NCBI GenBank assembly: GCA_021414025.1
Contig: JAIOPG010000007.1
Coordinates: forward strand, 54,008-118,007
From: Planctomycetota bacterium
Lineage (GTDB): Bacteria; Planctomycetota; Phycisphaerae; Phycisphaerales; SM1A02
Reading direction: 5' to 3'
Length of the DNA stretch: 64,000 bases
Made by a program: the position numbers and the translations under genes. Every line of letters begins with the position of its first letter. The first letter of the stretch is position 1. This document shows, piece after piece, positions 8,419-63,592 of this stretch. The notes under the pieces are model-generated. The model ran no database searches. It was not told where the DNA came from and saw only the letters and a list, made by a program, of their open reading frames with translations.

Positions 8419-8491
<73 letters not shown>

Positions 8492-58056: not shown

Positions 58057-59640
58057 TCACGCGTGCTCTCCATTGGTGTGTCGTCGTCGGCGGCGCGCCG
58101 GCTGGATGCCCATCTGCTCGCGGTATTTCACCACGGTGCGCCGGGCGATGGTGATCCCGCGCTCGCGCAACTGCGTGGCGATGGCCTCGTCCGAGAGCGG
58201 CCGGGTTTTGTCCTCGGCGTCGACGATCTCCTGCAGCACCGTGCGGACGGCCTCCCAGCTCACGCTCTCGCCATCGGCGTTTTCGGTGCCGCCGGTGAAG
58301 AACTTGCGCAGCTCCACCAGGCCGCGCGGCGTCTGCATCCACTTGCCGGCGACGGCGCGGCTGACCGTTGCCACGTGCACGCCGATGCGCTCCGCCACAT
58401 CCATCATCGGCAGCGGGCGCAGATGTCCCGAGCCCTCGTCGAACCATTCGCGCTGCCGCTCCAGGACGATCTCCACCACCTTCAGCAGGGTGTTCTTGCG
58501 CTGGGTGATGGCGTCGATGAGCCAGCTCGCCGAGCGGATGCCGTCCTGCACGAATTTCTTGGTCGCCGGATCGGTGGAATCGCGCTCCGCCATGGCGGAG
58601 TAGCGCGTGCTTACCCGCAGCGGCGGCACCGAGCCGTCGCAGATCGCCGCGATGTAGCGGTCCTGCTCCGGGTCGAACTCGACCATGACGTCGGGCACCA
58701 CCGGGCGCTCGGTCTCATCGGTCAGGTCGCGGCCGGGCGAGATGGTGAGGCGGCGCAGGCGCTCCTTGGCGGCCTCGATGCGCTCCACGTTCATGCCGCT
58801 GCGCGAGGCGATCTTGGGAAGCCGGTTCTCGAGGAAGTCGTCGTAGTAATCGCGCACCAGGATGCGTGCGTCGTTCCACGCCGCCTCGTCCTGCGCCGAG
58901 GGGCGCTCGTTCCAGCGCCGCGAGTCCAGCTTGGCGTCGATCTGGATGAGCAGGCTCTCCTGGACATCCCGCGCCGCCACGCCGGCGGGCTCGAGCCACT
59001 GCTGCAGCAGCGGCAGCACGCGCTCCAGTTCGCGGGCGGAGAAGTGCCGGCCTTCGTGCTCTCCATTCTTGGTTCCGTTTTTCGTCCCGTCCTGCGTTCC
59101 ATCCTTGGCGCCATGGGCCGCGATCGCCTCCAGGTCCGCAGAGAGCAGGCCGTCGTCGTCCACGAAATCCAGGATCGCCCGGCCCGCCTCCAGCGTGGCG
59201 GCGTCGGTTTCGATCAGGCTCCATTGCTTGCGCAGCTGCTCGCTCAGCGGCTCGCGCCGGGCGGCGGTCTGGGCCAGCATCTCGTATTTCACGTCTCGGT
59301 CGCCGTCGGAGCGGCGCGTCGCCTGCACCCCCTCGCCGTAGTCGCGCTCGAACTCGCGGGCCCGCTCGAAGGCCTCGCCGGTCTCGCCGCTTTCACCGCT
59401 GAGCAGCGGCTTCTCCGGGATTTCCTGCTCCACCGCCTCGGGCGCCTCGGCGGGCTCCTCGTCGCCGGCCTCGGGCTCGACCTGCTCGATGGCGACGTTG
59501 CGCTCCAGCTCCTGCTCCACGCGCTCCTGCAACTGGGCCAGCGGCATCTGCAGCACTTCCATGCTCTGGATCAGCCGCGGCGCCAGGCGCAGCTGCTGTG
59601 AGGTGCGGAGTTTTTGCGAGAGGTCGAAACGCATCCGCAC
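58057..59640 (-). CDS. rpoN: RNA polymerase sigma-54 factor
   Basis: N-terminal Gln/Leu-rich region I (LRTSQQLRLAPRLIQSMEVLQMP), an acidic region II, a core-binding region, and the C-terminal RpoN box ARRTVVKYRE. Confidence 0.92.
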   Translation of the reverse strand: MRMRFDLSQKLRTSQQLRLAPRLIQSMEVLQMPLAQLQERVEQELERNVAIEQVEPEAGDEEPAEAPEAVEQEIPEKPLLSGESGETGEAFERAREFERDYGEGVQATRRSDGDRDVKYEMLAQTAARREPLSEQLRKQWSLIETDAATLEAGRAILDFVDDDGLLSADLEAIAAHGAKDGTQDGTKNGTKNGEHEGRHFSARELERVLPLLQQWLEPAGVAARDVQESLLIQIDAKLDSRRWNERPSAQDEAAWNDARILVRDYYDDFLENRLPKIASRSGMNVERIEAAKERLRRLTISPGRDLTDETERPVVPDVMVEFDPEQDRYIAAICDGSVPPLRVSTRYSAMAERDSTDPATKKFVQDGIRSASWLIDAITQRKNTLLKVVEIVLERQREWFDEGSGHLRPLPMMDVAERIGVHVATVSRAVAGKWMQTPRGLVELRKFFTGGTENADGESVSWEAVRTVLQEIVDAEDKTRPLSDEAIATQLRERGITIARRTVVKYREQMGIQPARRRRRHTNGEHA

Positions 59641-59675: not shown

Positions 59676-60317
59676 TCAGCTCATCGGACGACGTCCGGCG
59701 ACGGCGTCTGCCAAAGCGGCGCGGTTGGCGAACTCGATCTGGCTGCCCGCGGGAAGTCCGCGCGCCAAACGGGTGACCTGGACCCCCAGGGATTGCAGCG
59801 GTTCGGCGAGATAGAGCCCGGTGCTGTCGCCCTCCATGTCGGGATTGAGCGCCAGGATCACCTCTGTCACTTTGACACCCCGCGCATTTTTTGACGCTTC
59901 GCGCACGCGGCGCAATAGATCGTTGGCGGTCAGGCTGTCGGCGCCGACGCCCTCCAGCGGCGAGAGCCTTCCCATCAGGATGTGGTAGACGCCGCGGAAC
60001 ATGCCGGTCTGCTCCAGGTTCCACAGGTCCTTGGGCTGCTCCACCACCATCACCATCGACGCGTCGCGCCGCGCGTCGGCGCAGATGCTGCAGGGATCGC
60101 CGTCGGTCAGGTTCCAGCAGACGCTGCAATGATGCACGTCGGTCTTCACGTCGGCGATCGCCTTGGAGAGGCGCATGGCCTCCTCGCGGGTGGATTTCAG
60201 CAGATGAAAGGCGAGCCGCTCCGCGGTGCGACGGCCCACGCCGGGCAGGCGCGAGAGCTCGTCGACCAGCCGGGTGACCGGCTCGGGCTGGGCGGAATTG
60301 GTGCGCTCCTTCGCCAT
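59676..60317 (-). CDS. recR: Recombination protein RecR
   Basis: Helix-hairpin-helix LPGVGRRTAERLAFHLL, C4 zinc finger CSVC...CSIC, and a Toprim domain. Confidence 0.95.
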   Translation of the reverse strand: MAKERTNSAQPEPVTRLVDELSRLPGVGRRTAERLAFHLLKSTREEAMRLSKAIADVKTDVHHCSVCWNLTDGDPCSICADARRDASMVMVVEQPKDLWNLEQTGMFRGVYHILMGRLSPLEGVGADSLTANDLLRRVREASKNARGVKVTEVILALNPDMEGDSTGLYLAEPLQSLGVQVTRLARGLPAGSQIEFANRAALADAVAGRRPMS

Positions 60318-60326
60318 GGTCCGATC

Positions 60327-62135
60327 CTACGCCTCCGCCGAATCGGTTTGCGGCGGCGCGGCTGCCAGCAGCGCGGCGCCGGGCTGCTCCACCTTGACCA
60401 CGATCGCGTCGAAGGCCTCCATGGCCTCGCGCACCAGCGGCATCTGCAGCAGATCCTTGTCGAGTCCGTGCATCGGCTTGACCGCCTGGGGCGGCGCCTC
60501 GGCGGCGGCCTCGAACTCCAGCTTCCAACCGGGGCCCAGCGCCCGGGTCGCCATGGTCTGCAGCATCTCGCTGCGCCGCGCGGCGTAGTTGGCGGCGCCG
60601 CCGGCGTTCTCGGCGGCGCGAAGCGTGAGCCTGCGGTCGCGCAGCGACACGGGCACGAAGGACTCCGCGAGCGTGCGCTCGGGGGTCGAGTTGGCCACGG
60701 TCGAGATTTTCTTCCAGGCCTCCTCGGCGCTGAGTGCATCATTGGAAGAGAGCGATGAATTTGGCGCCGCAACAGGAGCCGCGGGTTGAGCGGGCCGGGT
60801 CGTCGGCGTGGCGAGCGAACTCCTCGGCGCAGCGGGAGCCGTGAAGCCCGCCCCCGCCGCCTCCGGGCTACCTACCTTTTTTTTTTCGCCCTCGATGGGG
60901 CGTGACACACCGGCGACGGCTTGCTCCACCCGCTGGAACTCGCGGTGCAGGCAGAGCCTCGCCACGGTGGCGTCGAAGATCGTCCGCGGCGAGCCGCTGT
61001 TGCGGATGCTCTTGATGGCGGCCTCGCAGACCGCCACAAAATGCACGAGCTCGTGAGGTTCGAAGTGATCCGCCTGCTTGGCGGCCATCGCCCGGCCCTC
61101 CGCGGAAAGATCCACCAGGTCCGTCTCCTTGCCGCACGTCCGCACCACCAGGAAATCGCGCCACCGCGCGGCGAAGTATTCCAGAGCCTGCTCCGCCGGA
61201 CAGCCTGATTCCAGCAGCGCCGCCGCGGCTTCGAGCCCGGCCTTGGCGTCGCCGTCGGCGATCGCGGTGGTGACCGCCGAGACCAGTCCCGCGTCGGGAA
61301 GACCCAGCACCTCTTCGGCCATCCGAGTGGAAATGTCCCCGCTGGCTGCGGCGATCAGCCGGTCCAGCAGGCTCAGCGCGTCGCGCATGCTTCCGTTGCC
61401 GAGCTTGGCGACCAGGTGAATGGCGGCGTCTTCGGCCTTCAGGCCTTCCTTGCCAATGACGGCGCGCAGATGCTCGGCAATTTTTCCCGTGGCGATGGGC
61501 TTGAAGTCGAAGCGCTGGCAGCGGCTCTGAATGGTCGCGGGCACCTTGTGCGGTTCGGTGGTGCACAAAATAAACTTCACGTGCGGCGGCGGCTCCTCCA
61601 TGGTCTTGAGCAGCGCGTTGAAGGCCGGCGTGGTGAGCATGTGCACTTCGTCGATGATGTAGATCTTGTAGGGGCTCCGCGCCGGCAGGATGCCCGCCTT
61701 GGAAATCAGGTCGCGGGCGTCGTCCACGCCGCGGTTGCTGGCGCCGTCGATCTCGATGACGTCCATGTCCTCGCCGCGCAGGATGCTGGCGGAGATGGCG
61801 GCGGCCTGGGTCAATTCCTTGGGCGCGTTGAGGGCCCGGGCCAGCACACGCGCCATGCTGGTCTTGCCCACGCCGCGCGTGCCGCAGAAAAGGTAAGCAT
61901 GGGCGATGCGGTTCATGGCGATCGCATTCTGCAGCGTGCGGGAAATGCTCTCCTGCCCGATCAATTCGTCGAAATGGGCGGAGCGGTAGCGCCGCGCCAG
62001 CACGGTGTAGCCGCCGGTGGATCCATCGGCGCGGGCGACCGGCTCCAGGGCTCCGGGGATGAGCGCCTCGGGCATCGCAGTGGCGTCGCCGGATTCGGAA
62101 GTTGTTTTGGGTTTCTTCGCCAAGGTTCGATCCAT
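60327..62135 (-). CDS. dnaX: DNA polymerase III subunits gamma and tau
   Basis: YRSAHFDELIGQE, Walker A GTRGVGKTS, Walker B YIIDEVHML, sensor motifs, and a tau-type C-terminal domain. The first ATG, at 62135, has a GGAAG RBS. The track ORF starts at a TTG at 62204. Confidence 0.95.
   Translation of the reverse strand: MDRTLAKKPKTTSESGDATAMPEALIPGALEPVARADGSTGGYTVLARRYRSAHFDELIGQESISRTLQNAIAMNRIAHAYLFCGTRGVGKTSMARVLARALNAPKELTQAAAISASILRGEDMDVIEIDGASNRGVDDARDLISKAGILPARSPYKIYIIDEVHMLTTPAFNALLKTMEEPPPHVKFILCTTEPHKVPATIQSRCQRFDFKPIATGKIAEHLRAVIGKEGLKAEDAAIHLVAKLGNGSMRDALSLLDRLIAAASGDISTRMAEEVLGLPDAGLVSAVTTAIADGDAKAGLEAAAALLESGCPAEQALEYFAARWRDFLVVRTCGKETDLVDLSAEGRAMAAKQADHFEPHELVHFVAVCEAAIKSIRNSGSPRTIFDATVARLCLHREFQRVEQAVAGVSRPIEGEKKKVGSPEAAGAGFTAPAAPRSSLATPTTRPAQPAAPVAAPNSSLSSNDALSAEEAWKKISTVANSTPERTLAESFVPVSLRDRRLTLRAAENAGGAANYAARRSEMLQTMATRALGPGWKLEFEAAAEAPPQAVKPMHGLDKDLLQMPLVREAMEAFDAIVVKVEQPGAALLAAAPPQTDSAEA
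60868..60890 (-). other. Candidate programmed frameshift / transcriptional slippage site in dnaX
   Basis: The mRNA reads GGC GAA AAA AAA AAG GTA GGT AGC. It has ten consecutive A then G, which contains the A AAA AAG heptamer. TAG stops occur in both alternative frames within 9 nt (-1 frame: GGT AGG TAG; +1 frame: AGG TAG). Confidence 0.5.
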
Positions 62136-62308
62136 CCCAATGCTTCCGAGGACGGTCAGGCTGGCGCTTGCATGGGCTCCGCTGCTTATGGCTGCTGCCG
62201 TCAAGCTCTGACCAGGTTCACATGGCGTCCATCAAGCGGGCCCGACCGTCCTCGAAAGCACTGAAGCCCGAATCCTAGCCTCGCCCTCCGCCGCCGTACA
62301 ATCGCGCC

Positions 62309-63592
62309 ATGCCCCAGGAGACACCGGCGGATTCCCCCGAGGAAAAACGCAAAGAATCGAACGACCTTCCGGAGGTCGGCGGCGGCTTCTCCGCGACCAC
62401 CAGCGATCCGCCGCTCTCCAGCGTGGAATCCACCGACGCCCGCAGCGGCCGCTTCATGATGCAGGCGGTGCGGTTTCTGTTCATCGTGCTTCTGGTCTGC
62501 CTGACGTTGCTCACCGTGAGCAGCGTGAAGACCACGTTCGATTTCAGCTTCTCCATGATCGCTGGATTGGTGATCGCGACGGTGGCGGTCGGCGTGCTGG
62601 TGGTGGTGATCGACGCGCTGACCCCCAACAAGCGGATGGCGGGCGTGGTCGGCATCTACATCGGCGTCTGCTTCGGGCTGGTCGGCGCCGTGGCCTTCGG
62701 CGCGTTGCTGGACACGGTGGCCAATGCCTGGGAAATCGGCGACGCCACGGTGAAGATCTACTTGAACCTGAGCAAGTCGGTCGTCGGCCTGATCATCTGC
62801 TACTTCAGCGTGAGCGTGGTGCTCAACACCAAGGACGACTTCCGCCTGGTGATTCCCTACGTGGAGTTCAGCCGCACGCGCCGCGGCGTGCGCCCCTGGC
62901 TGGTGGACACCAGCGTGCTCATCGACGGCCGCATCATTCCGCTCTCCAACACGAAGCTGCTCGACGCACCGCTGGTCATCGCCAATTTCGTGGTGGACGA
63001 GCTGCAGCGCCTGGCCGACAGCTCCGACCGGTCCAAGCGCACGCGCGGGCGGCGCGGCCTGGAGAACCTGATCAAGCTGCGCGAGAACGCCTGGACCGAG
63101 GTCTCGCTGCAGAACTTCCGCGTCTCCGGCCTGAGCGTGGACCGCCTGCTGCTTGAGGCCGCACAGGGGGACGGGCTGCGCATTCTCACCACCGACTCGA
63201 ACCTGGAGTCGGTGGGCAAGATCCAGGGGGTGACCATCGTCAACATCGGCACCATGGTGGCGTCGCTGCGTCCAACCTTCGGCGTGGGCGATGTGGTGAC
63301 GGTGGCGATCATCAAGGCGGGCGAGGCCGCCGGCCAGGGCGTGGGCTATCTGCCCGATGGAACCATGGTGGTGGTCGAGGACGCGGTGAATCGCATCGGA
63401 GCGACGGTGGATGCGACGGTCGGAAACTCCGTGCAGACCAACGCGGGGCGATTGCTTTTCGCCAAGCTCGAGGGCCCGGCCCCCGCGACGCGGGCCAGCA
63501 TGGCCGCGGCGGCGACGCATCAGCCAAGGGAGCCGCATGTCCCGGCGTCCAGCAGCGAGCCCGATCCAAGGCGCAATCCGCGGCGCGGCTGA
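62309..63592 (+). CDS. Integral membrane PIN/TRAM-domain protein (YacL-like)
   Basis: Four N-terminal TM helices, a PIN-domain start WLVDTSVLIDGRI, and a C-terminal TRAM-like GDVVTVAIIKAGEAAGQGVGYLPDGTMVVVEDA. Confidence 0.78.
   Translation: MPQETPADSPEEKRKESNDLPEVGGGFSATTSDPPLSSVESTDARSGRFMMQAVRFLFIVLLVCLTLLTVSSVKTTFDFSFSMIAGLVIATVAVGVLVVVIDALTPNKRMAGVVGIYIGVCFGLVGAVAFGALLDTVANAWEIGDATVKIYLNLSKSVVGLIICYFSVSVVLNTKDDFRLVIPYVEFSRTRRGVRPWLVDTSVLIDGRIIPLSNTKLLDAPLVIANFVVDELQRLADSSDRSKRTRGRRGLENLIKLRENAWTEVSLQNFRVSGLSVDRLLLEAAQGDGLRILTTDSNLESVGKIQGVTIVNIGTMVASLRPTFGVGDVVTVAIIKAGEAAGQGVGYLPDGTMVVVEDAVNRIGATVDATVGNSVQTNAGRLLFAKLEGPAPATRASMAAAATHQPREPHVPASSSEPDPRRNPRRG

Follow-up and report, generated by a model that had tools for sequence, protein, structure and literature searches.

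Recoding of dnaX is textbook knowledge, both by ribosomal frameshifting in Escherichia coli and by transcriptional slippage in Thermus. Bacterial RNA polymerase slips efficiently on runs of nine A or T (PMC5009743, PMC1088944), and the dnaX gene of Thermus thermophilus, in which a single open reading frame (ORF) for tau contains an A9 run and both alternative frames end in nearby stops, yields tau and gamma at a ratio of ca. 1:1 (Larsen et al. 2000, as summarised in PMC5009743 and PMC1088944). A survey of frameshifted genes added two-ORF dnaX genes with A10 runs, 17 of them in 12 genera (Antonov et al. 2013, PMC3711429). Here, we describe the dnaX gene carried by a 64,000-nucleotide stretch of a Planctomycetota genome (contig JAIOPG010000007.1; the whole stretch is referred to as the window and all positions are counted within it). 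Judging by its sequence and that of its relatives, an A10 run in this gene probably serves for programmed transcriptional slippage of the T. thermophilus type, through which both tau and a shorter, gamma-like subunit would be made.

The run occupies 60877..60886 on the minus strand (T10 on the plus strand) and is followed by a G at 60876; the mRNA between 60900 and 60860 reads CCCC AUC GAG GGC GAA AAA AAA AAG GUA GGU AGC CCG GAG, of which the original prediction had correctly quoted AUC to CCG. That prediction had also called the homopolymer conspicuous in a genome of about 65% GC, which holds well, since the window has 65.5% GC and this is its only homopolymer longer than 6 nt, with 0.0025 A10 or T10 runs expected under a model of independent and identically distributed bases. 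Both alternative frames close immediately, again as predicted. The −1 frame (GGU AGG UAG) meets a UAG two codons on, at 60868..60870, and the +1 frame (AGG UAG) meets another one codon on, at 60872..60874, both on the minus strand. An overlapping ORF on the same strand (60868..61566), ending in GRKKKGR, bears out the first of these stops. The last seven nucleotides of the site (60876..60882, minus strand) spell the heptamer A_AAA_AAG in the zero frame, where −1 ribosomal frameshifting might take place as a secondary event.

The gene is dnaX and its identity is unambiguous. Pfam models for a delta-prime-like AAA+ module (DNA_pol3_delta2), the DnaX ATPase lid and gamma/tau domain III match the ORF, its top PDB matches are E. 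coli tau/gamma (E = 2e-66), and a 100% identical NCBI entry (P0001 in our set) from a planctomycete metagenome-assembled genome (MAG) is annotated as a 582-aa “DNA polymerase III subunit gamma/tau.” We follow that entry in placing the start at Met44 (62075), which gives a coding sequence for tau at 60327..62075 on the minus strand (582 aa, 61.7 kDa), although in-frame starts further upstream reach 62204 according to the ORF list. Depending on the start, the A10 run covers codons 440 to 443 (longest ORF, TTG start), 417 to 420 (Met24) or 397 to 400 (Met44). Numbered from the longest ORF, the Pfam match to domain III extends to residue 430 (ca. 387 in Met44 numbering), so that the run lies ca. 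10 codons past it, in agreement with the predicted position just after domains I to III.

The mechanism we propose acts on transcription. RNA polymerase moving over the T10 template would hold an RNA-DNA hybrid made only of A:T pairs, which can realign, and would thereby release mRNAs with A11, A12, A9 and other lengths next to those with A10. By standard translation, mRNAs with A10, A13 or A7 would give tau of 582 ± 1 aa (61.7 kDa), while a run length off by anything other than a multiple of three would bring a UAG within one or two codons and yield a gamma-like subunit of ca. 43 kDa. An A11 mRNA would run into the −1 frame stop and end in EGEKKKGR (402 aa), as would the product of a −1 ribosomal shift; the +1 frame stop would end the products of A12 (EGEKKKR, 401 aa) and A9 mRNAs (EGEKKR, 400 aa). 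All these short products would keep clamp-loader domains I to III but not the C-terminal region of tau, the part that binds DnaB and the polymerase in E. coli. We infer that the slippage takes place at the RNA polymerase step, and the same applies to its efficiency and to the short product acting as gamma. Ribosomes that shift to −1 at the in-frame A_AAA_AAG may make a minor addition to the product that ends in KKKGR.

To place the site in a wider context, we compared it with 80 dnaX loci from GTDB species representatives and 80 from metagenomes, all of them Planctomycetota (Phycisphaerae and Pirellulales), with 110 unique sites used for the counts of phase, 3′ base and frame. An A run of at least 8 nt directly past domain III was found in 138 of 161 Planctomycetota dnaX loci (A10 in 124, A9 in 12, and A11 and A13 in one each), and most of the other 23 end short of the run region. 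Thus, 136 of the 138 run-bearing loci have A9 or A10 at the homologous position, across loci that range from 46 to 73% GC and whose flanking sequence contains only 14 other A/T runs of at least 8 nt in 470 kb. Both frames other than that of tau are closed within seven codons in 89 to 90% of the loci, compared with 4% for background positions within these genes, a ca. 20-fold enrichment. Because the run is conserved and both short frames are closed far above background, the sequences indicate that the site, run and two nearby stops together, is under selection as a unit. The conservation of the run and of the nearby stops in related dnaX genes was one of the checks that the original prediction had named, and its central claim, a gamma/tau recoding site in dnaX, comes out of it strongly supported.

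The position of the run relative to the codons varies. At the unique sites, it begins in codon phase 1 in 70 cases, phase 2 in 36 and phase 0 in 4, and the base on its 3′ side is G in 64, C in 29 and T in 17, leaving the A_AAA_AAG heptamer in frame at only 29 of the 110. These phase shifts alter the encoded residues (EKKK, QKKK, xKKK, KKKx or KKN), and in the protein alignment KKK is kept at the A10 position down to 46% identity between freely variable flanks. On this comparison, what is constrained is the string of A's itself, not the codons or a framed heptamer. The features of the site, its conservation independent of phase, the close stops and the relatives that need a frame shift to make tau can all be read from the aligned loci themselves.

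Tau is encoded in the zero frame at 93 of the unique sites, and in the other 17 a long C-terminal ORF lies out of the N-terminal frame, in +1 in 8 and in −1 in 9. By tblastn (E = 1e-31 to 1e-75), this displaced ORF is a homologue of the tau C terminus that single-ORF relatives encode in frame. The +1 arrangement occurs in L016, L019, L020, L021, L023, L024 and L025 and the −1 arrangement in L013, L027, L030 and L055 (locus numbers of our set); in these genes the N-terminal frame ends one to six codons past the A run. Many DnaX entries in the databases are 400 to 430 aa long and end just past KKK, and “gamma/tau” entries of this size (e.g., P0092, P0095, P0100 and P0104) probably represent the gamma frame of two-frame genes. 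Tau is essential and its C terminus is out of frame here; therefore, the run must be where these species shift frame, some orthologues one way and some the other. When a gene family includes shifts of either direction, this has been taken as the mark of transcriptional realignment as opposed to ribosomal frameshifting (Antonov et al. 2013, PMC3711429). Slippage of the Thermus type with stops in both frames, which the original prediction had put forward as an alternative to the E. coli mechanism, is accordingly the better supported of the two, given a run that is independent of phase and 3′ base and shifts that go both ways. One Phycisphaerales locus, L014, has two frames with an A7 run only (L014:3631-3637), its zero frame ending after 4 codons and its −1 frame being open for 172; this short run resembles the short-run Chlorobium cases of the same survey (PMC3711429).

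Like T. thermophilus dnaX, the gene in the window has one ORF for tau, nine or more consecutive A's past the shared clamp-loader domains and a stop close to the run in each alternative frame. A Lys tRNA cognate for AAG is likewise common to both, as is the predicted output of tau plus a truncated gamma by standard translation. The gene in the window differs in having A10 instead of A9, in belonging to a Phycisphaerae-like MAG of the Planctomycetota and, maybe, in a GC-rich hairpin 5′ of the run. The two-ORF A10 genes of Antonov et al. have the gene, the motif and the inferred polymerase realignment in common with it, and their exact architecture recurs in L013, L016, L019 to L021, L023 to L025, L027, L030 and L055; in the window, however, standard decoding gives tau, and it is the short form that would need recoding. 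Moreover, the shifts which that survey described at the DNA level were all −1, while the Planctomycetota have both +1 and −1.

The original prediction had given first place to E. coli-type −1 programmed ribosomal frameshifting, in which the ribosome would slip on A_AAA_AAG, stimulated by GAGGG and a downstream stem, and gamma would end in KKKGR. As the main route we consider this unlikely. The window does share with the E. coli cassette the gene, the relative position, the in-frame heptamer, a −1 stop two codons later and a gamma without the tau C terminus, but the heptamer, real as it is here, is in frame in the minority of relatives given above, while A9 or A10 is kept in all three phases and before G, C or T. 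Nor would a pure −1 shift have any role for the conserved +1 stop, or account for tau lying in +1 in 8 relatives and in −1 in 9. The Shine-Dalgarno-like GAGGG is present as predicted (60889..60893, minus strand), 6 nt 5′ of the heptamer, where it encodes Glu-Gly. The corresponding spacing in the E. coli element is reportedly roughly 10 nt, from work of Larsen et al. in 1994. GAGGG is restricted to the closest clade, being absent from L004, L005, L007 to L010 and more distant relatives, and we rejected it as a stimulator in favour of a coding role (Glu-Gly) or a place in the 3′ arm of a weak hairpin. The predicted stem fared similarly. Its arms AGCCCG (60869..60864) and CGGGCU (60850..60845) exist as written within 60845..60869 of the minus strand, in a GC-rich region capable of pairing, but they are not paired with each other in the structure of lowest predicted energy, and shuffled sequences fold as well as the 87 nt 3′ of the run (z = −0.16). 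The downstream region ranks at the 19th percentile of stability within the window gene, and the median percentile among relatives is 0.39; that of L010 falls among the most stable 4% of windows of its gene. With a stability so inconsistent among relatives, a downstream stimulatory stem, although pairing is possible, was not retained as a supported feature. An Rfam scan of 60700..61050 (E ≤ 10) gave no match to the DnaX element, only chance matches to mir-978 and PK-BYV. Finally, the E. coli-type cassette goes with a sole tRNA-Lys, having a derivative of anticodon UUU, that reads AAG weakly, whereas ARAGORN identified a tRNA-Lys gene with anticodon CUU, cognate for AAG, at 8419..8491 on the plus strand. 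The reliance of Thermus on polymerase slippage, and of E. coli on ribosomal shifting, has been explained by an additional Lys tRNA in Thermus with tight pairing to AAG (Atkins et al., PMC5009743), and the tRNA-Lys(CUU) should likewise disfavour slipping off AAG here. The wrong spacing of the Shine-Dalgarno-like motif, the insignificant 3′ stem-loop, this tRNA and the conserved run length all set the window apart from the E. coli cassette.

We find it very hard to maintain that no recoding occurs and that the run merely encodes a patch of three lysines in the linker, with incidental stops out of frame. KKK is indeed conserved in the protein, and standard decoding suffices for tau at the 93 unique sites with one uninterrupted ORF. 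Yet a 65% GC genome with an AAG:AAA ratio of 37:13 among Lys codons (dnaX, recR and rpoN together, slippery site included) would not write lysine as AAA AAA AA by chance, and the run stays at 9 to 10 nt while its phase and the encoded residues change. To this are added the ca. 20-fold enrichment of stops in both alternative frames and the relatives with an out-of-frame tau C terminus, which cannot make tau unshifted. It is still harder to credit that the T10 acts on the plus strand, as the U-tract of an intrinsic terminator or an antisense signal, or is an artefact of assembly. A GC-rich inverted repeat does stand 8 nt before T10 on the plus strand, but the scan for a plus-strand terminator or promoter returned none, with nothing terminator-like on the plus or the minus strand of 60300..62300, and the plus strand of dnaX holds only antisense ORFs and no credible gene. 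As for an artefact, homopolymers are error-prone in assemblies; the A10, however, recurs in ca. 100 independent assemblies and the ORF in the window is intact.

Several points weigh against polymerase slippage as the explanation. We assume that A10 makes the planctomycete RNA polymerase slip in the way of its E. coli and Thermus counterparts. The in-frame A_AAA_AAG together with the −1 stop in the window leaves room for ribosomal shifting, and no gene for tRNA-Lys(UUU) was seen in the 64-kb window. All the sequences compared come from MAGs or metagenome assemblies, and the run can differ in length between loci with identical flanks (A10 in L015 and A11 in L092; A10 in L119, L121 and L122 and A13 in L118). 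Calls of homopolymer length are fallible, and single ones deserve caution. The differences in L118 and L092 could be assembly errors, population polymorphisms or, if the contig is metatranscriptomic, products of slippage at the RNA level.

A hairpin in the nascent RNA stimulates slippage in the IS630 element of Roseiflexus (Penno et al. 2015, as summarised in PMC5009743), and a short GC-rich hairpin directly 5′ of the motif is also found in a subset of Planctomycetota dnaX genes, weakly in the window. Here, it would be CGCCC-CAUCGA-GGGCG (60887..60902, minus strand), which abuts the 5′ end of the run and contains the GAGGG; this tentative hairpin has a 5-bp stem with a predicted energy of −8.5 kcal/mol (29th percentile within the gene) and is poorly conserved in the closest clade. 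Across the loci, which are phylogenetically related, the 28 nt directly 5′ of the run are more stable than other windows of the same genes (median percentile, 0.21), and a hairpin ending 0 to 2 nt before the run is present in 34 of 78 loci, versus 21% of control positions. The clearest case is a 6-bp stem, AC(U/C)CGC-N5-GCG(A/G)GU, separated by one C from the run in a Phycisphaerae clade (L016, L019 to L021 and L023 to L025, plus L018, their single-ORF A9 relative). It is located at L016:3685-3701 and equivalent positions in L018 to L025 and is most consistent where tau is read in +1, a frame that would be reached by losing one A from the mRNA or gaining two. The stem has one covarying pair (U-A to C-G through a U-G intermediate), a score equaled by 33 of 500 shuffles. 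As a general feature the 5′ hairpin was set aside, being enriched but weak in the clade of the window and with its covariation confined to a single pair; as a means of tuning slippage it is a tentative lead. In addition, the heteropolymeric U5C5 motif of Roseiflexus needs its hairpin to slip, whereas A10 should slip unaided, and the hairpin in Planctomycetota is not universal.

The site is a new example of Thermus-type slippage, not a new mechanism or principle, and what it adds is modest: conservation throughout a phylum, a templated product that switches both ways and a possible 5′ hairpin. Searchable literature yielded no paper linking dnaX slippage to Planctomycetes, and the supplement of the 2013 survey, in the text available, has no list of A10 species; the survey itself covered only two planctomycete genomes (Antonov et al., PMC3711429). 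A broader proposal can be made only with reserve, although it is far from implausible: A10 may be an ancient realignment signal of the whole phylum (Phycisphaerae and Pirellulales), on which the templated product has been swapped repeatedly between tau and gamma in both directions, with a terminator-like 5′ hairpin that may tune slippage in some lineages. If this were so, the Planctomycetota would offer a natural series for how the efficiency and direction of slippage are set. If the reading of the site as a slippage site is itself correct, the phylum supplies >100 natural variants in which to test determinants of efficiency such as phase, 3′ context, 5′ hairpin and A9 versus A10. The annotation of dnaX would then be incomplete in this genome and in most Planctomycetota, where a second replisome subunit, gamma, would be encoded, and ca. 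15% of the relatives would hide the essential tau behind a short “gamma/tau” ORF, reached only by slippage. A mechanism experimentally shown only in Thermus would extend to a large and distant phylum.

Four of the relatives carry a second run of A8 or A9 within dnaX, at about codon 230 (LGEKKIT), namely L019:3192-3200, L020:3240-3248, L026:3186-3193 and L067:3199-3206; the window does not. Around the gene, recR (59676..60317, minus strand) begins 9 nt past the dnaX stop, without ybaB/ebfC between the two, and is followed by rpoN, encoding sigma-54 (58057..59640, minus strand). Upstream of dnaX, an ORF on the plus strand (62309..63592) resembles PIN/TRAM proteins, with Pfam scores that are all below threshold.

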